Part shown: piece after piece, positions 98-28,857 of the stretch
Numbering within the stretch: the first letter of the stretch is position 1
Layout of the letters: each line of letters begins with the position of its first letter
NCBI GenBank assembly: GCA_038063535.1
Contig: JBBTUV010000004.1
Span: 114,238 to 178,237 of the forward strand
DNA from: Patescibacteria group bacterium
GTDB lineage: Bacteria; Patescibacteriota; Minisyncoccia; Phycocordibacterales; UBA9973
Direction: 5' to 3'
DNA length: 64,000 nucleotides
Notes under the pieces: generated by a model
Databases searched by the model: none
Seen by the model: the letters and a program-made list of their open reading frames with translations, nothing else
What the model was told of the DNA's origin: nothing
Program-made: the position numbers and the translations under genes

Positions 98-1861
98 CTA
101 TGATTTTAGCACTTTTTGCTCTTTGTTCATACGGCGAAAAACGGAATTGTTTTGGTTCATGAGCTCATCATAGGCTCCTTCTTCCACTACTTGTCCCCTT
201 TCCATTACGGCAATCTTGTCCGTGTATTTAAGCGTGCCCAGGCGGTGAGCGATTATGAGAAATGTTTTGTCTTTGCCGTAAACGCCTAAAAGCTTTTCCA
301 TAATTTTTCCTTCCGTCTCCGAATCAAGCGACGAAGTCGCTTCGTCGAGAATTATTATCGGCGCATTTTTGTAAATCGCGCGGGCGATCCCCAGGCGCTG
401 GCGCTCTCCGCCGGAGAGCATATAGCCCTTTTCACCGATTTTCGCGTCGAGCCCCTCCGGTAGTTTGGCGATCACTTCACCAAGTTGAGAAATTTCAGTA
501 GCCTGATTCAGAAGCTCGCTGTCGCCGCTGCGCATCATAGTAATATTGTCGCGAAGCGAGAGGTTAAAGAGCTCGGTCTCTTGTAGAACTACAGTGATGC
601 TCGAAAGCGTTTCGTTGTGCGAAATCGAGTAATAGTTTTTGTTGCCAATTTTGAATTCACCGGACTCGAGCGCGTAAAGGCCTAAAATTATTTTTGCCAG
701 AGTTGACTTGCCGGAGCCGGAGAGTCCCGCGATCCCCGTCTTTGTATTTCTCGTGAGCGTCAAATTAAAATCCTTCATCCCCATCTGCCCCGACCCGTAA
801 TCCATGTTTGCATTTTTAATCTCGATTGCTTTCCAATCTCTCGGGAACGTTTCATTGCCTCTTTTGATAAACTCCGTTTCTCTAAATATAGGCATCATGT
901 TGCCCAGATCGGACCTGAGCTCAATAAGATCTGAATGCATATTACTGAAATCTCCCAACCCATCACGTAGTCTAAAAAAATAGGCGAAGGCAACCAATAC
1001 TGTTCCTATGGTGATAACCTGAGCGATTACCTCCTTCGCTGTCAAAAATAAGAAGAACATTAATGCTGTACCGTTTATGAACTGTAAAAGATACCACTTA
1101 CTATATCCCGCTTTTGATCTTTTTATTGACATATCCCGCGATTCCTCTTCTCTATTGGCCACACGCGCGCTAATATTTTGTTCACTACCTAGGGCTTTCA
1201 CTGCAAGTAAATTGCTTGCACTTTCTACATACACTCCACCCGCAGCTTGGTTAAATTTATTGAATTCATTACTCAATCGTAGAATTTTTTTGCTTAGCGT
1301 AAATTCTATCGACAAGAAGAGAGCAGTATAAACGAAGATTACAATGGCCAACTTATAATCAATGAAAGACAATATAATAATTGCCCCGACAATGTCGGCA
1401 AAAATTTTGAGAATATCTTTTGTCAAAGCTCCTAGCCAGGACTTGATAGAATCGGCACCAGTAAAGATACGCTGAATTTTGCTTCCAATATTTTCCTTAC
1501 TGTGCCATTCAAGAGAAAATTCAGTTAACCTTTCAAATCCCCAAATTCGCGCCTTGGCTCTGCCCCTTTGTCCCATTATTGATATATTCATCTTGCTGTA
1601 CAAGCGAATTAAAGACGCAGCAATATATGTGCCCCCAATGAAAAGAACATAACCATACAGGGGCTCAAGAGGATCACCGGGAGAGTGTATTGTTAAAAGA
1701 TCAATAATTTTTCCCGTTACATAAGGAGGGACAAAAGTATAGAAGAAAATAGATGAAAGTAGAATTGTAAAAAAAATGAATTTTCTTCTATCATTCTCTA
1801 AGAAATACCAAATTGCCTTTGGTACGTCCCACCAGGAAAAATTTTTTACGTCCTCCTTCAT
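98..1861 (-). CDS. ABC transporter, fused permease/ATP-binding protein (MsbA-like exporter)
   Basis: 587 aa; N-terminal multi-TM region; Walker A GLSGSGKST; ABC signature LSGGERQRLGIARA; Walker B IIILDEATSSLD. Confidence 0.85.
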   Translation of the reverse strand: MKEDVKNFSWWDVPKAIWYFLENDRRKFIFFTILLSSIFFYTFVPPYVTGKIIDLLTIHSPGDPLEPLYGYVLFIGGTYIAASLIRLYSKMNISIMGQRGRAKARIWGFERLTEFSLEWHSKENIGSKIQRIFTGADSIKSWLGALTKDILKIFADIVGAIIILSFIDYKLAIVIFVYTALFLSIEFTLSKKILRLSNEFNKFNQAAGGVYVESASNLLAVKALGSEQNISARVANREEESRDMSIKRSKAGYSKWYLLQFINGTALMFFLFLTAKEVIAQVITIGTVLVAFAYFFRLRDGLGDFSNMHSDLIELRSDLGNMMPIFRETEFIKRGNETFPRDWKAIEIKNANMDYGSGQMGMKDFNLTLTRNTKTGIAGLSGSGKSTLAKIILGLYALESGEFKIGNKNYYSISHNETLSSITVVLQETELFNLSLRDNITMMRSGDSELLNQATEISQLGEVIAKLPEGLDAKIGEKGYMLSGGERQRLGIARAIYKNAPIIILDEATSSLDSETEGKIMEKLLGVYGKDKTFLIIAHRLGTLKYTDKIAVMERGQVVEEGAYDELMNQNNSVFRRMNKEQKVLKS

Positions 1862-3792
1862 TCGAGAACCCTCCTCAAGACGTCTTCAGGCACTTCTTTA
1901 GTTTTTTCAGCCTTAGGCTGACCAGCCTCTGGCTGGTACGGCGGAGGCGGCGCAGCTTGCCCTGAGCTTGCTTGTTGTGAGCTCGTCGAACCAGTCGAAG
2001 GGGGCACTTTTTCTTCGATTACTTTTTTTAATTTATCCATATCCTCGGCTTTTGCGGACAAATCTCTTGCGTCTTTTGTTTCTTTTCTTTCATTTTTTTT
2101 CAAATTCGCAAGCGAGATCGGTGGCGGGGTCGGCTTTACTTCTTCTTTCATCGCTTTGCTCAAAACTTCTTTGAGACCGACATTGTCTTTCTGCTGCCTA
2201 TGGAATTTTTTTGGGGGAACCTTCGGGCTCTCAATGCCGGTGGGCGAAAATTCTATTCCGAGCGCGGCAAGCGGCTCGTAAAACGTAGCCTCCTTTTCTA
2301 TAAGCTCTTTTTTCGAAAGGCGGACAGGCTGGATCTCTCCAACCTTTATCTTCGCGTGGCAATCGTCGCAATAAACTGGGCGGCCCGGTTCGGGCTTGAA
2401 AGGCACCATCGTTTCTCTTCCGCAATTCGAGCAGATCGCCTTGAATCGCTCGCTCGAGGGTATCGGCTCGTCACCTAGAGCCATCCCGCTCCAGTCGGTG
2501 ATCTCTTTCTCAACATCGACGCGCGGCCGGCAATAAAGCTCACGAGATGCTTTGATAACTTCACGTTCTATCGCTGGGTCGCTCCGGTTTTCGATCGGGG
2601 GCAATGTCTTTGCCGAGAATGGCCTTGAAGTTATGCCGTCGATCATGAGCTTCATGTAAACCTTGTAGTTCGGCAGATTCACGATATCTTGCGGAGTGAA
2701 TTCCGGCTCGAATTCTGCTTCGAGAAATTCAGCGTCATCGGCACCCACGCGGAAAACTATCATAGTGCCGACGTTGCCAAAGACTGCATCGCGAACAGAA
2801 GAATTTTTCTCCGCCACGAGTTGGGCGGTGTACTGGTGCGCGATGGTGAGGTTTAGGCGGTATTTGCGCGCCTCCGATAGGATGCCTGCGAAAGCGTCGG
2901 TCACGAAATTTTGGAATTCGTCGACGTAGAGGTAAAAATCCTTTCGCTCGTCCTCGGGGATCCTCACGCGCTCCATCGCCGCAAGTTGGATCTTGGTGAT
3001 GATCATGCCACCCAAGAGCGCGGAGTTATCTTCGCCGATCCGGCCCTTCGAAACGTTTACCAAGAATATTTTTCCTTGGTTCATGATGTCGAAGATGTTG
3101 ATGGTGCTTTGCGACTGGCCGACGACGTTTCGGATGATCGAGGTTGAGAGGAACTGACCGACTTTGTTTTGGATCGGAGCGATCGCTTCGTTTCGGAACT
3201 TATCCTGCCAGGCCTCGTACTCGTGTATCCAAAATGCCTTGATCACCGGGTCCTTCAGATTGTTGATGATTTTTTGCCGGTAGTCTTTGTCGACGAGCAT
3301 GCGCGGGATGCCAAGGAGCGTGGTTCCTGGCGTATCAAGAAGCGCGAGGATCGTGTTGTTCAAAATATATTCCATGCGAGCGCTCCAGGCGTTCGCCCAG
3401 ATCTTAGTAAATATTCCCATCAGGCCCGAGGCGACGAGGTGTTTGTACTTCTCGTCCACAAGTTCAAGTACGTTGAAGCCGATATGATAGTCGGTATCGG
3501 CTGGGTTGAAATAAATGACGTCTTTCATCCGGTTTGACGGGATGGCGGAGAGGACGGATTCCACTAATTCGCCGTGCGGGTCTACCACGCAGACGCCTTC
3601 GCCGTTCCGGATGTTCTGGATAATCATGTTGAACATCAGGACCGATTTGCCGGTGCCGGATTTTCCCAAGAGATAAACATGCTGGCGCCTATCCTTGCGC
3701 TTGATGCCAAAGAGAGTGTTTTTATCCCGATAGGTCGTGAGCCCAAGATAGGTAATCTCCCTATTTATCGGTATTTCCGGAATGTCAGGCAT
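1858..3792 (-). CDS. VirD4/TraG-like P-loop NTPase (T4SS coupling-protein family) with C-terminal zinc ribbon and low-complexity K/E/P-rich tail
   Basis: Walker A LLGKSGTGKSVLMF; Walker B FYLYVDEFQNF; CSNCGRE..(17 aa)..CDDCH zinc ribbon; ~130 aa low-complexity C-terminus; overlaps upstream ABC gene by 4 nt. Confidence 0.5.
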   Translation of the reverse strand: MPDIPEIPINREITYLGLTTYRDKNTLFGIKRKDRRQHVYLLGKSGTGKSVLMFNMIIQNIRNGEGVCVVDPHGELVESVLSAIPSNRMKDVIYFNPADTDYHIGFNVLELVDEKYKHLVASGLMGIFTKIWANAWSARMEYILNNTILALLDTPGTTLLGIPRMLVDKDYRQKIINNLKDPVIKAFWIHEYEAWQDKFRNEAIAPIQNKVGQFLSTSIIRNVVGQSQSTINIFDIMNQGKIFLVNVSKGRIGEDNSALLGGMIITKIQLAAMERVRIPEDERKDFYLYVDEFQNFVTDAFAGILSEARKYRLNLTIAHQYTAQLVAEKNSSVRDAVFGNVGTMIVFRVGADDAEFLEAEFEPEFTPQDIVNLPNYKVYMKLMIDGITSRPFSAKTLPPIENRSDPAIEREVIKASRELYCRPRVDVEKEITDWSGMALGDEPIPSSERFKAICSNCGRETMVPFKPEPGRPVYCDDCHAKIKVGEIQPVRLSKKELIEKEATFYEPLAALGIEFSPTGIESPKVPPKKFHRQQKDNVGLKEVLSKAMKEEVKPTPPPISLANLKKNERKETKDARDLSAKAEDMDKLKKVIEEKVPPSTGSTSSQQASSGQAAPPPPYQPEAGQPKAEKTKEVPEDVLRRVLE

Positions 3793-5758: not shown

Positions 5759-5786
5759 TTGTATAATACCAGTATAGTGCTATACT
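5759..5786 (+). promoter_or_regulatory. sigma70-like promoter (TTGTAT-16-TATACT) driving the near-leaderless PaaX-like gene; the -10 overlaps a 7-2-7 inverted repeat AGTATAG-TG-CTATACT
   Basis: Boxes read directly; ATG lies 6 nt after the -10; inverted repeat at 5771-5786. Confidence 0.45.
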
Positions 5787-5792
5787 TAAAAC

Positions 5793-6302
5793 ATGTCAAG
5801 CAATATCAGGAAAATCCTTAAATTACTTGCTGAAAAGCCCGCGATACCCGTAGAGACTCTTAAGGACCGAAACGACCCAAAGGCTTCCTATGCCCTTGCA
5901 AGAACCGCAAGGGCCCTTGTAACGGGCGGATATGTGGAAATGCTAAATTCGAGCCGGGAAAGCTATTTGCGGCTTACCAAGAAAGGTAAAACCAGGCTCG
6001 ATACCATACGCCTAGAGGGAGATGGGATGCCCGTAGCGCAAAATTGGGATGGCAAGTGGCGAATAATTATTCTTGATATCGACGAAGCAAGGAAGAGTGA
6101 ACGTGAAGCACTACGATATCTCTTGAAGAAAGCAAATTTCGTCTGCGTTAAGAATACCGTCTGGATCTCGCACCTCCCCTACGAGCATCTTTTTGAGAAT
6201 ATAAAAAAGGATCTCGGCCTCACCACCGAGCTCATGATCCTCGTCACTGATAATCTAGACCCCGAAACCCGTCTTGCTTTCCTAGAGGCCCTCAAAAAAT
6301 AA
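5793..6302 (+). CDS. PaaX-like winged-helix transcriptional regulator
   Basis: Central WDGKWRIIILDIDEARKSEREALRYLL resembles the PaaX C-terminal domain (WDGxWhhh...LPExxRxxRxxLR); N-terminal wHTH-like region; divergent from dnaK. Confidence 0.5.
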   Translation: MSSNIRKILKLLAEKPAIPVETLKDRNDPKASYALARTARALVTGGYVEMLNSSRESYLRLTKKGKTRLDTIRLEGDGMPVAQNWDGKWRIIILDIDEARKSEREALRYLLKKANFVCVKNTVWISHLPYEHLFENIKKDLGLTTELMILVTDNLDPETRLAFLEALKK

Positions 6303-6332: not shown

Positions 6333-8045
6333 TCAGTAGACTTCTTGCTGATAGCAACGCTCGCAGTAGATTATTTCCGGCCGCTCGGAGGAATAAGTGG
6401 TTTTGAATTCTTCCAGGCACTTCCCTTCTCCGTGAAAGTGCTCGTTCTTTTCACACATGCATGATCTGTCCCAAAGCTTTAATGGATTTCTTTGTTTAAT
6501 CCTCTGGAAATGCCGGCAGTTCGGACACAGGCGTGGAAAAGGCAGACTCATTCTTTTGTAGAATTTAAATTCCTCTGGAACAATTTTGAAAGCCTCGGTG
6601 CATTGTTCTTCACAACCCCCAGCATGAGCACAAGCGATTGTTTTGTTCAAAATGTCTTCAGGAACGTCCTGGATATGATCAGGGATTTCATTGCTCGCGA
6701 TATCAATTTTATAGTTTCTTTTCTTCTCTTCCCGCCATTTGTATCCTTGTTTCTCTGCTTGCGTTTTAGTTAAAGGAAAATACTCTTGGGCTATAGTTTC
6801 GTTGTAGGCAAGCGGCGAGAGCCAGGCCGGGAAAAATTCCCCGAATTCCTTATTTTTTATCATGTGCTCGACTATTTTGGGCACAAGTTTCTCGTATTCC
6901 TCTTTTGAATACTGCTTATTCAGGACGCAATATTCTTTTTTGCGCAGGCCGATGCAGCCGAAAATATTCCGGCATTCGTGACATTCTTCATTGTAACGTG
7001 CATCTTGGTTGTTAATATTACGAGTTCCAAAAGCAACATTGTGACCACCAAAACAGTGCGCAATTTCATAGACCAACTCGCTCCCCCACCCCTGGAAGGA
7101 GGTATCGTAGCAATCCTTCGCAACGTTCCTAATATAGAATAAAAATCTTGAATCCTCAATTTGAGCAGAGGAATAAGAATCTTTCGTGTTTCGGGATTCA
7201 TAAAGATCGTCTCCTGTGGAGTTAACCGACTTTATAATCCTCGCAAAGCGATGGATGGCCTGTCTATCCAATTCTGCAAGTTTTTTCTTATATTCTAAGT
7301 GAGCTTCAAAACTCCCTAAGTTGGCTTTCTCAATGAATTTTTTGTATTCCTCTCTAGAGTGTGGTTTGTTCCAGATGTGATATTGCTTGTTTCTAAGACC
7401 CACACAACCGAAGCAGTTTATGCAGTTTTTGCAGTCAATCAAATAGTAGCTTTCCACGCAAGCTTCTGAATGCCCACTAAAAAATAAATTATTGGACCCA
7501 AGGCATTCAAAAAGTTCGTAGCTGAATTCAATCTTCTCGCAGAATGCGATATCCATCGAATCGCCAGAATTGAAAATTTGATTGGCAAAGTATACTCTTT
7601 CATTACCCTTTCCCCCGAAAAGCAGATAGCAATCTCGAAAGTCCAGCCCGTAGTTGCAGTATTCGCTATTTACAAAATTCGTCCGATATAGATTCACTCG
7701 TGGCACAGAAACCTGGAGTGAACGGAATTGATTGAAAAAAGGCTGAGAAAAATCATAAGGCCTGCCGTAAGAGAGTGGGTCCCATTTGTCGGAAAGCCAG
7801 CAGTCCCGGCAGTAAATTGTAAAAGGCTCTTCCTCGTGGTAAATAGTCAGTGTTGATTCTCCGCAGAGAGCGCATTTACGCCGGTAGAAAACACGATTAT
7901 TTCTAAAAAGGAGTCTCCGCTGGAACCGACAATCCGGGCAGAAAGTCGGCGGTGGCACCTGCATCTTCTCGTAAAAATTAAAATCTTCCGGCTCGATTAC
8001 GAAGTTGTTTTTACAATTCTGGCAAGTTTTAGTTTCCGCGTTCAT
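6333..8045 (-). CDS. Large cysteine-rich protein, uncharacterised family; paralog of 27166..28857
   Basis: 570 aa; N-terminal CxxC..(23)..CPxCR and CxxC..(17)..CRDC zinc ribbons, repeated at the C-terminus; two internal CxNCFGCxGLRxKxY...NK..S.EEYxK repeats; ATGA overlap with purL stop. Confidence 0.7.
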   Translation of the reverse strand: MNAETKTCQNCKNNFVIEPEDFNFYEKMQVPPPTFCPDCRFQRRLLFRNNRVFYRRKCALCGESTLTIYHEEEPFTIYCRDCWLSDKWDPLSYGRPYDFSQPFFNQFRSLQVSVPRVNLYRTNFVNSEYCNYGLDFRDCYLLFGGKGNERVYFANQIFNSGDSMDIAFCEKIEFSYELFECLGSNNLFFSGHSEACVESYYLIDCKNCINCFGCVGLRNKQYHIWNKPHSREEYKKFIEKANLGSFEAHLEYKKKLAELDRQAIHRFARIIKSVNSTGDDLYESRNTKDSYSSAQIEDSRFLFYIRNVAKDCYDTSFQGWGSELVYEIAHCFGGHNVAFGTRNINNQDARYNEECHECRNIFGCIGLRKKEYCVLNKQYSKEEYEKLVPKIVEHMIKNKEFGEFFPAWLSPLAYNETIAQEYFPLTKTQAEKQGYKWREEKKRNYKIDIASNEIPDHIQDVPEDILNKTIACAHAGGCEEQCTEAFKIVPEEFKFYKRMSLPFPRLCPNCRHFQRIKQRNPLKLWDRSCMCEKNEHFHGEGKCLEEFKTTYSSERPEIIYCERCYQQEVY

Positions 8046-10894
8046 TTCATGCTGTCGGAGAACTTATGATAAAGGCGATGCAATTTGTTGACAGAATATT
8101 TTTTGAGGCCGAACTTGAGTTGGTTACGCCCTGTAACTACCCCAAGGCGGGTATACGGGACACTTTTTGCTATTTTTTCAAACGCCGGCATGTTTTCCGG
8201 CGCAACCGAAACCAATACCCTGCCTTGGCTTTCTGAAAATAAGTTGTGTTTGCTGACATCAACACCCGCCCCAAGCATTCCACCAATGCAGGCTTTGCTT
8301 AAGGCAACCGCCAGGCCGCCGGAGGTGAGAGAAATCGACGAGGCAAGAAGCTCTTTTTCTATCGTTCGCTCGAGCGATCTGTATATTTTTAAATTAGCCC
8401 TTGCGTCGACCCTAATTCCTTTTTTAGTTTTACCGAGGAGATATATTACGTCGCCCGCGCTCTTGAACTCCGGAGTAACGACTTTATTTATGTCAGGCAC
8501 GACGCCGATCGAGGAGATAAGGAGAGTTGGCGGCACGGAGACTTTGGTCGGCCGGCCCATAGCATCAAAACCCTTGAAGTCGTTGAACATACTGTCCTTG
8601 CCGGAGACGAAAGGCGTCCTGTAGGCAATCGAGTAATCATAGCAAGCACGAGCGGCTTCCTTGAGCTGCCACAAGCGTTCCGGCTCGTTTGAAGAGCACC
8701 AGCAGAAATTGTCGAGAAGCGCGAGATGGTCGAGTTTTGCACCGGCTACGACGGCGTTCCGGACAGCGGTATCTATGGCTGCGGCGGCCATATCATAAGG
8801 GCTCGTTTCGCTCAATTCCGGATAAAGGCCGAGGGAGAGCACGACCCCTTTTTTTGAAGTAAGTACCGGCTGGAAGACCTGCGCGTCGGTATTGATGCGG
8901 CCCGGACCGGAGAGCGGTTTTAGGATCGAGCCGGCTTGAACCTCGTGGTCGTATTGCTCGGAGATGAAAGCGAAACTGCTGATGTTCTTATCGGCGAGAA
9001 GTTTTTCCAAGCTTCTCGCGACTGGCTTCGGGCTCGCGGGCTTAGGCCGCCTGGTGCGCAGATGAACTTTCGGTCGGCCGTCGTGCAGGAATCCCATATC
9101 CATATCCATTATCTTCTTACCGCGCCAGCGGAGCACGCATCTACCCGAGCCAGTAAACTCACCGATCCGAGTTGCCTCCACGCCGCGACTCTTCATCAGA
9201 GCCGCGAACCTCGCCCAATTGCGCTTGGGTACGGCCAGGGTCATCCGCTCCTGCGATTCCGATACCCATATCTCCCAAGGTTGCATATTCGCGTACTTAA
9301 GCGGTACTTTTTCGAGGTTCACTACCACCCCCTTTGATTCCTTGGCCATCTCCGAGACCGAAGAGGACAACCCACCAGCGCCATTGTCGGTGATGCTGTG
9401 ATAGAGATTTTCACCGCGTGCTTCCTTAACCACTACGTCCGAGAGCTTTTTCTGGGTAATCGGGTCACCGATCTGAACCGCACTCACAGGAGAATTCGCA
9501 TCAATAGCGAGAGATGAGAAAGTCGCCCCATGGATGCCGTCTCGACCCACGCGTCCGCCGATCATAACCACATAATCGCCGGGCTTCGCGCCTTTCTTGT
9601 AAAGCAACCGGCCGTGCTCGCGCTTTGGCATGAGGCCGACCGTACCCGCGAAGACAAGCGGTTTGCCCCGATATCTTTCACCGAAACGCACAAAACCCGA
9701 GACGGTGGGGATGCCGGAAGTGTTGCCGCCGGCATTGATGCCTTTTATCACCCCTTCCATGATCCTTTTCGGCGGGAACATTTTCTGGGTCAAGTCTCGG
9801 TCGCGATAAAGCGGTCTGGTATCCTCGGGCAATCCGAAACAAAAGCCGTATGTATTGGCAATGGGTTTCGCACCCAAACCGAAACCGATAGAATCGCGGT
9901 TCACGCCCACGATGCCGGTGATGGCTCCGCCGAAGGGGTCGAGCGACGAGGGAGTGTTGTGCGTTTCGACTTTATGAGAGATGAGGTATTTATCGTCGAA
10001 CTTGATCGCGCCGGAGTTATCGGAGAAGACGGATACGCAAATATCTCCGCGCCCGCGCTTTTCCCTTATTTTATTTGTGGCACCCTTTATGTAAGTTTTG
10101 TAGAGTCCGTCCCGGATATTATCGATCGCAGAAGCGAAGATCGTGTGCTTGCAGTGTTCGCTCCATGTTTGGGCGAGCGACTCAAGCTCGATATCGGTTG
10201 GGCGGCGACCGAGTTTGCGAAAATAATCGCGGATCGCCTTCATGGAGCGAAGGTCGAGCGCAAGCGGCCCCCGGCCCTCGATACCCTGCTCGCTGATTTT
10301 CTTAAGCTCACTGTCCCCCACCTCAAGGTCAATCTTCGTTACTGGTCTACGCTTCTCAAGGGTGACCTTCGGCACAGATTGGGGAAGCATCAATTTCCCG
10401 TTTCCTACCTTGCGGATCTCACCACGCTCAATAAGCGGATTGTAAAGCGAGGCCGCAATTTTTTTCAGCGCCGCCGCACCGACCTTGCCCTTCAGTAAAA
10501 AAACTCGCGATGTATATACCTCGATGCCCTTCTTTCCGAGCAGATCTTCGGCCATTTCCCGCACCGTGTGCCCGACGTTGTCGGTGACGCCAGGCAGATA
10601 GCCCACTTCGATGGCTAACCTGTGCCCTTCGGCCGGAGCGCGGTCAATATAAAAGCGCTCGGTGACGGGGTTGGTAAGTGCACGGGCAATCTTTGCGACA
10701 TTTCCGTGCGAGAGACGCGCGTCGAGCGCATAGACGTCGAGTAGGCGAAGGCTACGGACTCCGTACGCGCGCCAGGACTTGAGATATTTGAGGGCTCTCG
10801 GGTCCACGCTTCTCGCCGCGACGTATATCCGCGAAATCATACCGGGATTATAACAGAAAATCCTCTCATATGAATGATTCAGCAAGTAATCCAA
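8042..10894 (-). CDS. purL: Phosphoribosylformylglycinamidine synthase, large-type synthetase (PurL) lacking the glutaminase domain
   Basis: 950 aa; N-terminal region resembles the large-PurL N-domain (LRSMKAIRDYFRKLGRRPTDIELESLAQTWSEHCKHTIF); AIR-synthase-like motifs (GIVGVNRDSIGFG, SITDNGAGGLSSSVSEMA). Confidence 0.8.
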   Translation of the reverse strand: MDYLLNHSYERIFCYNPGMISRIYVAARSVDPRALKYLKSWRAYGVRSLRLLDVYALDARLSHGNVAKIARALTNPVTERFYIDRAPAEGHRLAIEVGYLPGVTDNVGHTVREMAEDLLGKKGIEVYTSRVFLLKGKVGAAALKKIAASLYNPLIERGEIRKVGNGKLMLPQSVPKVTLEKRRPVTKIDLEVGDSELKKISEQGIEGRGPLALDLRSMKAIRDYFRKLGRRPTDIELESLAQTWSEHCKHTIFASAIDNIRDGLYKTYIKGATNKIREKRGRGDICVSVFSDNSGAIKFDDKYLISHKVETHNTPSSLDPFGGAITGIVGVNRDSIGFGLGAKPIANTYGFCFGLPEDTRPLYRDRDLTQKMFPPKRIMEGVIKGINAGGNTSGIPTVSGFVRFGERYRGKPLVFAGTVGLMPKREHGRLLYKKGAKPGDYVVMIGGRVGRDGIHGATFSSLAIDANSPVSAVQIGDPITQKKLSDVVVKEARGENLYHSITDNGAGGLSSSVSEMAKESKGVVVNLEKVPLKYANMQPWEIWVSESQERMTLAVPKRNWARFAALMKSRGVEATRIGEFTGSGRCVLRWRGKKIMDMDMGFLHDGRPKVHLRTRRPKPASPKPVARSLEKLLADKNISSFAFISEQYDHEVQAGSILKPLSGPGRINTDAQVFQPVLTSKKGVVLSLGLYPELSETSPYDMAAAAIDTAVRNAVVAGAKLDHLALLDNFCWCSSNEPERLWQLKEAARACYDYSIAYRTPFVSGKDSMFNDFKGFDAMGRPTKVSVPPTLLISSIGVVPDINKVVTPEFKSAGDVIYLLGKTKKGIRVDARANLKIYRSLERTIEKELLASSISLTSGGLAVALSKACIGGMLGAGVDVSKHNLFSESQGRVLVSVAPENMPAFEKIAKSVPYTRLGVVTGRNQLKFGLKKYSVNKLHRLYHKFSDSMK

Positions 10895-27165: not shown

Positions 27166-28857
27166 TCAGTAGATCTCTTTGTTATAGCAGGATTCGCAGT
27201 AGACCTTTTCTTTTCGCTCTGGCGCAAAAGCAGTTTCGAATTCGTTTGGGCACAACCCGTTATGGTCATGGTTTTCTAAATTACATCGGCATTTCCCGTG
27301 CCAGAGCTTTCTGGGTGGGCGTAAATTGAACCACCTCATGTATCTACAATCAAAACAAAGCCTAGGGATTGGCATATTTTCATTTTTATAAAAAGTAAAT
27401 TCGTATGGAACAATATTGTAGTTTTTTGAGCAGTTTATGCATTTCAAAACTTCTTTTGTTATGTCGTCCTTAATATCTTTTATGTTATCAGGTATATCTT
27501 CTGGCTCCATTGTTTCTTTCCCATATGTCCCGAGAATTTTATCTTCCCATTGCCAACCCCTTCTAAGTACTTCTTCTTTAGTCATTGGCAGGTAACGTTG
27601 ACCCTGCGTCTCATTGTAGCAAACCGGAGCAATTGAGGGGGGCATAAATTCACCAAACTCTCTAGTTTTTTTCATGTGATCGATAATTTTAGTTCTTAAT
27701 TTTTCATATTCATCTTTTGAATATTTCTTATTTAAAATCATATATTCTCCCTTTTTTACAGAAATGCAGCCAAATAAATTTTGGGAATTTTGGCACGTGT
27801 CTCCGTACATCACATTCATGTTGTCATAGCAAAGATGACAAAATTGGCAATTTGACACTCGAGTACAACCCTGAGCTTCGTAGATTTGTTCGCACTCTAG
27901 GCCTACATGATAACAATCAAAAGAGTCTCTGATGCCCAAGACGGAGTACATGTATTTTGAATTTTCTACTCTTTCAGCGTCGAAAATAAAACTCGAATTC
28001 TTCACATGGGTAAACATATTACCAAGAGCGTTTATATTAAATTCTCCTGTTACGTATTTATGAATTGCTTGATTTGCTATCATTTCTACAAATTCCCTAT
28101 AAAGTTTCTCTCGGACAGCGAAAGAACCCAGGTCATATTCGGAAACTTTTTTCATATATTCTTTACGGGGATGTTCCTCATTTTTGAAACAGTATTTTTT
28201 GTTACGAAGATTATAGGATAAAAAGCAATCTGTGCACCCATGCATATCGTGAGAGTAATGAACATTCACACAATCTCTCATTAGAAAATTATATTGGCAT
28301 TGGTATGATTTGATTACATCCATGCACCCATACATCCGTTCTCCTTTTTCTCTTACGTAATAACAATCCATGCAATCTCGAGAATAAAATACCCAGTTAC
28401 TATAGTAAACATTTTCGTTAAAAAATGAAGAAATAGAGAGGTAGACGTTCTTATTATCGCCAGAATGATTCGTGTATTCAGAATTCACACTTCTTTTATT
28501 GAGTAGCGCCATGCGGGGAACTTCGAGTTGTAATTCATGAAATTGCTCGAAGAAGGGCCGGTTGAAATCAAAGTCTCGACCGTAAGAGCTCGCGTCCCAA
28601 CCGTCACCCCACCAGCATTCATTGCAGTAAACTTTGTGAGGCTTGTTTGGCGAATAAATAGTTACCGTGCTTTTACCGCAAAGATCACAGTTCCTACGAT
28701 AGAGCGTTCGTTCGTTTCTCCAAGCATAACGGCGTAACTGCCGGCACTCCGGGCACCAGGTTGGTGGCGTGACGGAGATCTTTTTGTAAAAATCAAAATC
28801 TTCCGGCGCGATTACGAAATCTTTTTTACAATTTTGGCACGAGCGGGTTTCCATCAA
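27166..28857 (-). CDS. Large cysteine-rich protein, uncharacterised family; paralog of 6333..8045
   Basis: 563 aa, collinear with the 570-aa paralog (same N- and C-terminal double zinc ribbons, same internal duplicated unit); ATGA overlap with rseP stop. Confidence 0.7.
   Translation of the reverse strand: MMETRSCQNCKKDFVIAPEDFDFYKKISVTPPTWCPECRQLRRYAWRNERTLYRRNCDLCGKSTVTIYSPNKPHKVYCNECWWGDGWDASSYGRDFDFNRPFFEQFHELQLEVPRMALLNKRSVNSEYTNHSGDNKNVYLSISSFFNENVYYSNWVFYSRDCMDCYYVREKGERMYGCMDVIKSYQCQYNFLMRDCVNVHYSHDMHGCTDCFLSYNLRNKKYCFKNEEHPRKEYMKKVSEYDLGSFAVREKLYREFVEMIANQAIHKYVTGEFNINALGNMFTHVKNSSFIFDAERVENSKYMYSVLGIRDSFDCYHVGLECEQIYEAQGCTRVSNCQFCHLCYDNMNVMYGDTCQNSQNLFGCISVKKGEYMILNKKYSKDEYEKLRTKIIDHMKKTREFGEFMPPSIAPVCYNETQGQRYLPMTKEEVLRRGWQWEDKILGTYGKETMEPEDIPDNIKDIKDDITKEVLKCINCSKNYNIVPYEFTFYKNENMPIPRLCFDCRYMRWFNLRPPRKLWHGKCRCNLENHDHNGLCPNEFETAFAPERKEKVYCESCYNKEIY

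Follow-up and report, generated by a model that had tools for sequence, protein, structure and literature searches.

Two genes in a 64,000-nucleotide stretch of DNA from a Patescibacteria group bacterium (GenBank assembly GCA_038063535.1, contig JBBTUV010000004.1, positions 114,238 to 178,237; hereafter the window) are functional members of a protein family that is restricted to the Paceibacteria and anciently expanded. They are called copy A and copy B here. The structural and evolutionary account of the family is well supported; the account of its function, drawn from sequence, is offered with low confidence. Copy A (6333..8045, minus strand) is an intact open reading frame (ORF) of 570 amino acids (aa) with an ATG start. 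Copy B (27166..28854, minus strand) encodes 562 aa from the ATG at 28854 and has the same four-module layout; the mechanical ORF, 27166..28857, has a TTG start at 28857 and 563 aa, and public gene calls choose the ATG. End-to-end BLASTP comparison of the two proteins gives 40% identity (E 1e-152) in a collinear alignment, in agreement with an earlier reading made from the sequence alone (the sequence-only reading), which had placed both ORFs on the minus strand and described them as full-length homologs. No third copy was found by tblastn of A and B against the whole window.

Is the internal symmetry of these proteins more than a passing resemblance? Profile-profile alignment with hhalign, based on a 42-sequence family alignment, pairs the N-terminal module (residues 3-83) with the C-terminal module (residues 467-565) at a probability of 99.4% (E 3.7e-21), and the first middle module, M1 (residues 135-241), with the second, M2 (residues 283-391), also at 99.4% (E 4.6e-21). 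Because both pairs align at this level, the N-M1-M2-C layout is, judged by these profiles, real and far beyond chance, and the four-module symmetry proposed beforehand is borne out. The motifs quoted in that proposal are present; in A they read C8xxC11...C36xxC39, C58xxC61-x17-C79xxC82 and CINCFGCVGLRNKQY / CRNIFGCIGLRKKEY.

The middle of the protein consists of two modules and a segment that belongs to neither. M1 (7260..7688, minus strand; residues 120-262 of A) is a narrow beta-solenoid ending in CINCFGCVGLRNKQY...SREEY, followed by a helical hairpin. M2 (6852..7259, minus strand; residues 263-398) is a second beta-solenoid, which ends in CRNIFGCIGLRKKEYCVLNKQYSKEEY and is followed by a long helix. 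Each solenoid is closed by a conserved 'NK.YS.EEY' helix. Residues 399-465 (6651..6851, minus strand) have no counterpart after M1 and no family match in the Pfam search; the conservation profile marks them as a unique and highly conserved segment, GEFFP..SP.AYNET.AQ.YFPL.K...G..W, with near-invariant positions G402, F404, P406, Y414, N415, E416, and W437. Conservation in the family peaks at residues 361-380 (score 0.66-0.79), where N376 is invariant, and the end of M2 together with the unique segment that follows (residues 361-425, FGC.GL..K.YCILNKQYSKEEY ... GEFFP...SPFAYNET.AQ.YFPL) is the best-conserved region of the whole protein.

The two ends carry the predicted zinc sites. Site 1 (C8, C11, C36, C39; 7914..8033, minus strand; residues 5-44 of A) is a zf_Tbcl-like treble clef followed by a basic helix, modelled with a predicted local distance difference test score (pLDDT) of ~96. 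Site 2 (C58, C61, C79, C82; 7791..7895, minus strand; residues 51-85) is a CxxC-x17-CxxC finger of the zf_Tbcl_2 type. The C-terminal pair (C472, C482, C507, C510 and C529, C543, C561, C564; 6336..6650, minus strand; residues 466-570) is homologous to the N-terminal pair. The sequence-only reading had held that no named domain could be assigned, and this has to be revised for the terminal modules. At residues 5-44, zf_Tbcl (PF13451) scores 15.9 bits for A and 18.3 bits for B, both under the cut-off of 24, and a few orthologs carry a precomputed PF13451 match; by its motif, CxxC...F.I...D..FY.K...P.P..CP.CR, site 1 fits the zf_Tbcl pattern and is a divergent relative, not a scored member. At residues 50-82, zf_Tbcl_2 (PF23477) scores 30.5 bits in B, over the Pfam cut-off of 27, and has no reported match in A. 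The TIGR04272 'CxxC-x17-CxxC' domain reaches 19.7 bits in B, under the NCBIfam cut-off of 36, and the public precomputed match for B is labelled 'faint'. The exact CxxC-x17-CxxC spacing and a P..VYC-type motif occur in both copies: C58ALC61-x17-C79RDC82 with 'PFTIYC' in A, and C57..C60-x17-C78..C81 with 'PHKVYC' in B. Both Pfam families are themselves without known function, and the central ~65% of the protein has no named family.

Which of the many cysteines are likely to bind metal? Copy A has 33 (~6% of its residues), and 16 of these lie in the four Cys4 sites. In an alignment of 145 diverse members, representatives at 50% identity or less, the Cys4 sets are intact as CCCC in 140/145 members for site 1, 82/145 for site 2, 110/145 for site 3, and 142/145 for site 4. 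Where site 2 is absent (43% of members), all or nearly all of its ligands have gone together (e.g., CTDY). Since each end set is kept or lost all-or-none across the 145 members, the four sets behave as real metal sites, and they are predicted to bind structural zinc. The near-universal sites 1 and 4 and the loss of site 2 as a set imply that sub-families differ in predicted zinc stoichiometry. In the middle modules, by contrast with the ends, cysteines are swapped piecemeal for serine or leucine, as would be expected of small core-packing residues of a narrow solenoid and not of metal ligands. A fifth metal site in the M1 coil (C205/C208/C211/C214) was considered and rejected, because all four are cysteine in only 71/145 members and the replacements are again piecemeal. 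The label 'cysteine-rich' given earlier needs correction, as it comes to ~6% Cys with fewer than half of the cysteines of A in the four sites; the description of an uncharacterised family with predicted metal sites is upheld. In small proteins of Methanosarcina mazei, the CxxC-x17-CxxC domain binds zinc by inductively coupled plasma mass spectrometry (ICP-MS), and the function of these proteins is unknown (PMC12704099).

The AlphaFold model of A, built with the 145 representatives after an earlier 42-sequence run had been poor in the middle, has a mean pLDDT of 92.4 and a predicted template modelling score (pTM) of 0.91; residues 140-180 alone drop to ~67. It shows very short strands or bridges every 3-6 residues in two runs (residues ~120-228 and ~264-378), each closed by helices, with the zinc modules at either end and the whole protein forming one compact body. 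Both runs form narrow beta-solenoids, in which small Cys/Ser residues make up a ladder. Foldseek against the Protein Data Bank (PDB) gave nothing significant (best E 0.009, TM-score <0.2), a PDB sequence search with A alone gave no match, and comparison of PDB sequences with the family profile gave only non-significant matches to LIM (E 0.3-0.5) and Tenebrio antifreeze (E 2.5) proteins. As modelled, the middle 65% is a generic kind of solenoid without an identifiable relative. A confident match to a characterised family over most of the length, which the sequence-only reading had named as evidence against itself, turned up in none of Pfam, NCBIfam, PDB, PADLOC, PHROGs, or Foldseek. The family has no transmembrane segment and a median isoelectric point (pI) of 6.15, from which a soluble, mildly acidic cytoplasmic protein is predicted.

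How widespread is the family? A word-index search returned 7690 matches for A and 5685 for B. The named matches were all hypothetical proteins of Patescibacteria, Paceibacterota, or Nomurabacteria, or came from records labelled merely 'bacterium'. Public data hold a protein identical to A (a 'hypothetical protein' of a Patescibacteria group bacterium), and the exact 562-aa sequence of B is on record on 13 contigs; the word-index search missed B's own protein (best match 69%), so this index can overlook identical entries. An HMMER scan of 1.84 billion cluster representatives found at least 2171 clusters (50% identity) below 1e-30, of which the best 150 are 523-602 aa long and match the profile end to end, apart from a few entries truncated at the N-terminus. 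In a scan of one genome per GTDB species, at least 575 stretches matched. The best 79 loci come from Nomura-, Giovannoni-, Staskawicz-, Lipton-, and Sungbacteria and other Paceibacteria/Minisyncoccia, or carry generic labels ('uncultured Candidatus Saccharibacteria', 'uncultured bacterium', 'bacterium'). Three (L052, L036, and L072) are labelled Burkholderiales, Gammaproteobacteria, or Bacteroidales. These look like mis-binned or mislabelled contigs of metagenome-assembled genomes, because L052 (JAMPXW010000002.1, 268 kb) has the typical Paceibacteria gene order and the other two contigs are ~2 kb each. Outside cellular genomes the family is nearly absent: there was one partial match among 2.9 million viral contigs, none in PADLOC, and only chance-level matches in PHROGs. 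A defence or phage origin was rejected on these negatives.

Orthologs of A reach 83% identity and are typically at 64-70%, and those of B are at 61-69%; A and B themselves are 40% identical. One A and one B ortholog occur on the same contigs, for example on contigs of 232,989 bp and 189,541 bp. The duplication is therefore old, since each copy has its own orthologs in many genomes. The suggestion that the gene had been duplicated in a very small genome does not survive this comparison: A and B are two ancient orthologous lineages, and relatives carry arrays of up to ten divergent paralogs. Nor are they decaying remnants, as the genes are intact and strongly conserved.

The arrangement of the family was counted in 81 fetched loci, in which ORFs were called and clustered. 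The family cluster holds 199 genes (201 including the two copies of the window), of which 129 adjoin another member; in each of the 82 adjacent pairs both genes point the same way, and the gap between them has a median of 23 nt. Arrays range from two to ten paralogs, the largest having eight (L038) and ten copies (L050). In the latter (JANBVK010000001.1, 168675-186396), ten family genes, eight of full length and two truncated where the locus stops, fill the whole 17.7-kb locus of a 621-kb contig together with one leucyl aminopeptidase gene, and the copies are 35-46% identical. Within-array paralogs are 31-48% identical, like A and B. By their divergence, the arrays are old paralogs kept side by side and not recent amplifications. 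Single-linkage orthogroup clustering of 181 full-length members gave no clean groups. Eight to ten paralogs take up to ~3% of a ~0.6-Mb genome.

Both copies are tightly coupled to housekeeping genes upstream, as had been described, and the flanking genes had been named correctly. By Pfam and public gene calls, A stands in the order PRTase-purL-A and B in the order mreB-holB'-frr-rseP(M50)-B-M24-ddl-murI. An ATGA overlap had been claimed for both genes, and it holds only for A, whose start overlaps the purL stop at 8042..8045 (minus strand; by direct reading, ...AGC ATG AAA TGA with ATG AAC GCG). At B, the letters are CTT CTT TGA TGG (cttTGATGgaa): the rseP stop TGA (28854..28856, minus strand) shares only its last base with the in-frame ATG at 28854, a one-nucleotide TGATG overlap. 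No conserved link ties the family to purine or cell-wall operons. Close relatives of A follow purL in some genomes and dnaJ in others, so that neither the purine operon around A nor the cell-envelope operon around B says much about function. The window purL (8042..10894, minus strand; mechanical ORF starting with TTG) is the 950-aa form with FGAR-AT linker, AIRS, and AIRS_C but no glutaminase domain, and in relatives a family gene separates purQ-purF-purN-purD from this purL. A role in purine biosynthesis, suggested by the position of A relatives between purL and purQ in three loci, was rejected, since purL already carries a linker/PurS-like N-terminus and equally close relatives follow dnaJ.

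What, then, are the recurrent neighbours? A TraG/TrwB/HerA-type P-loop ATPase comes first, with 42 genes spread over 29 of the 81 loci, followed by DnaK (15 loci) and DnaJ (14 loci). The ATPase occurs in two forms: the long one (620-776 aa) bears a C-terminal CxxC-x17-CxxC finger, which the short one (~490 aa) does not have. In family-centred loci, 10 of 14 long, finger-bearing genes are directly followed by a family gene. Fingers 2 and 4 of the family are homologous to that of the ATPase (hhalign 96.4%, E 1e-9 for finger 2; 89%, E 2e-6 for finger 4). The candidate partner in the window is a soluble member at 1858..3792 (minus strand; PF10412, PF02534, PF01935, and PF23477 at 3.5e-15), directly after dnaK, with a zf_Tbcl_2 finger at residues 448-482 and a long low-complexity tail.

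A block built around chaperone genes recurs in nine genome loci and, independently, in three metagenome loci: grpE, two or three family genes, a PaaX-like gene on the opposite strand, dnaK, the long ATPase gene, one or two family genes, (rsmE), the short ATPase gene, dnaJ, and a family gene. In its order grpE-dnaK-dnaJ-rsmE, as in Bacillus subtilis, the block looks like an ancestral operon that has taken up family genes. The organism of the window has a reduced version, with purL-A, the PaaX-like gene, and dnaK-long ATPase-ABC; the short ATPase gene and dnaJ lie just past the left edge. This finger-less paralog, just outside the window, was located at 8512..9996 of locus L083, preceding dnaJ. 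Within the window, A is in a transcription unit separate from that of dnaK. In other lineages the order is secDF-c9-c10-c22-TraG-family array-CutA1-TraG (four loci), and in six loci (L013, L020, L021, L062 (c23), L105, and L119) a CutA1 'divalent ion tolerance' gene lies between a family array and a gene for a TraG-like ATPase.

The PaaX-like gene of the window (5793..6302, plus strand) encodes a regulator with a winged helix-turn-helix and a Cas2-like PaaX_M domain and lies upstream of dnaK on the opposite strand, an arrangement that recurs in at least six loci from genomes and in several from metagenomes. This regulator may be the heat-shock regulator that replaces HrcA in these bacteria. 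The constitutive co-expression with core functions suggested by the sequence-only reading is not among the points upheld, and a promoter and terminator scan was indistinguishable from shuffles. The best sigma-70-like site of the region (5771..5799, minus strand; TTGACA-17-TATACT, 11/12) lies upstream of dnaK and overlaps the first bases of the PaaX-like gene.

What might such proteins do? We put at roughly 35% the reading that they are a set of non-enzymatic, zinc-stabilised adaptors or scaffolds, which would use the shared finger to dock on the TraG-type ring ATPase, act together with DnaK, DnaJ, and GrpE, or do both. This guess is built on the shared finger domain and the clade-limited neighbourhood. 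The protein body would serve as a rigid, non-catalytic binding platform stabilised by zinc, and the many old, individually conserved paralogs might have a partner of their own in each case or assemble among themselves. The likeliest partners would be the TraG/FtsK-type ATPase with the same finger and the DnaK, DnaJ, and GrpE proteins encoded by the interleaved chaperone genes; the finger could act as a docking element, in analogy to the zinc-finger domain by which ClpX docks. The lack of any hexapeptide-transferase or other enzyme family match in Pfam and NCBIfam supports the non-enzymatic part. A bolder version, which we regard as doubtful, makes the family the core of a Paceibacteria-specific machine: eight to ten paralogs would co-assemble, or form a panel of specificity adaptors, and dock by the shared zinc finger on a housekeeping TraG/FtsK-type ring ATPase in the dnaK-dnaJ locus. 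If true, this would be a new protein- or nucleic-acid-handling system without counterpart in studied bacteria.

Several observations weigh against the adaptor reading, among them a reciprocal test in which 80 metagenome loci centred on the long ATPase (retrieved with a TraG profile) were annotated with hidden Markov models (HMMs) of both families. Among 66 finger-bearing TraG genes, 57 had a called downstream gene; a family gene followed in 5 of the 57 and preceded in 3. The family-linked genes were all among the closest relatives of the window ATPase (58-81% identity), most of them in the dnaK-linked block (L087, L088, L090, L091, and L121). The remaining ATPases stand in a secDF-c9-c10-TraG-pgk-recJ-rnhA setting, where the constant neighbour is the upstream membrane protein c10 (31 cases). 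In most lineages the ATPase clearly does without the family. The association is real, though limited to a single clade, and inheritance of gene order may account for part of it. An obligate partnership with the TraG-type ATPase is weakened accordingly. Moreover, B and the purL-linked relatives of A sit in unrelated operons, and residues 355-440, very conserved and with the invariant polar residues N376, Y414, N415, and E416, would also fit an unrecognised active site. The mild acidity of the family argues against a general nucleic-acid binder.

The same loci bear on the ATPase itself. It is 55-75% identical across lineages, with many invariant positions, which is unusually conserved for a 'conjugation' protein; because of this conservation it looks like a core gene. 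In most Patescibacteria, protein c10, a ~450-aa membrane protein, lies upstream of the long ATPase and after secDF. It probably represents a membrane domain split off from a coupling-protein-like ATPase, since the PHROG profile that matches the ATPase has ~380 extra N-terminal positions.

Other explanations are to be weighed against an adaptor. The insertion of family genes at several places in a seemingly ancestral grpE-dnaK-dnaJ-rsmE operon could instead mean that the proteins are proteostasis factors: holdases or co-chaperones with zinc centres, like the cysteine-rich domain of DnaJ or Hsp33, co-regulated with heat-shock genes and independent of the TraG-like ATPase. Protease neighbours fit this idea (RseP and M24 beside B, leucyl aminopeptidase inside arrays, a trypsin-like protease). 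We consider it unlikely, however, as there is no sequence or fold similarity to the DnaJ domain or Hsp33, the rigid, compact, high-pTM body is unlike redox-switch holdases, and eight to ten conserved paralogs would be odd for a general chaperone. In the window, A and dnaK are in separate transcription units, and synteny in one clade is weak evidence.

A new type of enzyme, with its active site in the invariant M2-cap and post-solenoid region (residues 355-440) and paralogs that differ in substrate, would explain the conserved polar residues named above. Yet the best fold matches are non-catalytic solenoids, neither Hexapep nor any other enzyme family is matched, there is no recognisable nucleotide- or cofactor-binding motif, and a conserved N/K/Y at the same place in M1 (N226) makes these residues look like those of a structural cap; such an enzyme seems rather unlikely.

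Paralogs might also join at their solenoid ends to form a filament or lattice in the cytoplasm, like bactofilin- or curli-type solenoids. This is improbable: in the model, helices and zinc modules cap both solenoid ends and would block end-to-end stacking, Pfam gives no homology to bactofilin, and only two copies are visible in the 64-kb window.

Could the proteins be cargo of a TraG/VirD4-type coupling ATPase, that is, effectors exported to a host cell? Paralog arrays do adjoin the coupling-protein-like ATPase, and candidate phyla radiation (CPR) bacteria are thought to be symbionts (PMC6744442). Very little of this idea withstands the rest of the data. Identities of 63-83% between species are unlike those of effectors; the proteins lack a signal peptide, and they end in a folded, conserved zinc finger and not in a disordered C-terminal tail; four zinc sites would make unfolding for export costly; the reciprocal locus test was negative; and the family is essentially absent from viral and mobile contigs (one partial match). 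A zinc buffer or store, for which the cysteine content, the four Cys4 sites, and the CutA1-type gene beside some arrays might be cited, is hardly credible, as a protein with only four sites in 570 residues would store metal poorly, 43% of members dispense with site 2, and conservation is higher in long non-metal regions than in the sites.

Why should the family matter? In Paceibacteria (Parcubacteria), whose genomes measure ~0.6-1 Mb, most non-essential genes have been lost, yet many of these bacteria keep several old copies, up to ten, each conserved at 63-83% between species. The organism of the window occurs in the Hainich groundwater wells. Because the family is held at such cost in shrunken genomes, it is very likely to be important to the life of these uncultivated, probably symbiotic cells. 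Families enriched in Parcubacteria are mostly hypothetical proteins (PMC6744442), and this one has lacked annotation and a solved relative, with two thirds of its length outside any Pfam model. A 'hypothetical protein' now becomes a tractable target, with a confident model, a domain map with four predicted zinc sites, and a short list of candidate partners, and a cytoplasmic solenoid with an internal cysteine ladder is structurally interesting in its own right. The protein is built from known elements, namely treble-clef fingers that belong to two Pfam families without known function, and a beta-solenoid. The literature searched contains no description of the architecture, of the family, of how it expanded in minimal genomes, or of the genes that accompany it; queries on the domain names and on a CPR family of this kind returned nothing relevant beyond PMC12704099 and PMC6744442.

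Proteins with zf_Tbcl (PF13451) and zf_Tbcl_2 (PF23477/TIGR04272), such as those of M. mazei, have the same finger types and the exact CxxC-x17-CxxC spacing. They are small and stand alone, or form tails on other proteins, whereas here two finger pairs flank ~370 residues without a named family. The last finger of the family (...C-x(n)-C...YCxxCY) resembles the second finger of a LIM domain (CRP, 1ctl), in a match that is non-significant (E 0.3-0.5); the two fingers of the family are sequential and separated, in contrast to the contiguous LIM arrangement.

Among narrow beta-solenoids, the curli-like CsgA of Pontibacter (8c50) and the antifreeze proteins of Tenebrio molitor (1ezg) and spruce budworm (1m8n) were compared with the family; identities of 2-11% over 80-94 residues and non-significant Foldseek scores make this an analogy and not a homology. 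Those solenoids are secreted, with disulfides or amyloid stacking, whereas the family is cytoplasmic, capped, and flanked by zinc fingers, so that none of the marks of the antifreeze/curli group (homology, secretion, a disulfide ladder or amyloid stacking) was found. Likewise, neither a Pfam Hexapep match nor a fold match connects it with the left-handed beta-helix hexapeptide acyltransferases or gamma-carbonic anhydrases.

The TraG/TrwB/HerA ATPase of Paceibacteria shares a homologous C-terminal finger and is often encoded by the adjacent gene in related genomes; the remaining parts of the two proteins are unrelated, and the adjacency fails in most lineages. ClpX is a ring ATPase whose N-terminal C4 treble-clef zinc finger is a docking site for adaptors and substrates. 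The likeness to ClpX is proposed purely as a functional analogy; the ATPase considered here is of the FtsK/HerA/TraG type and ClpX is an AAA+ protein.

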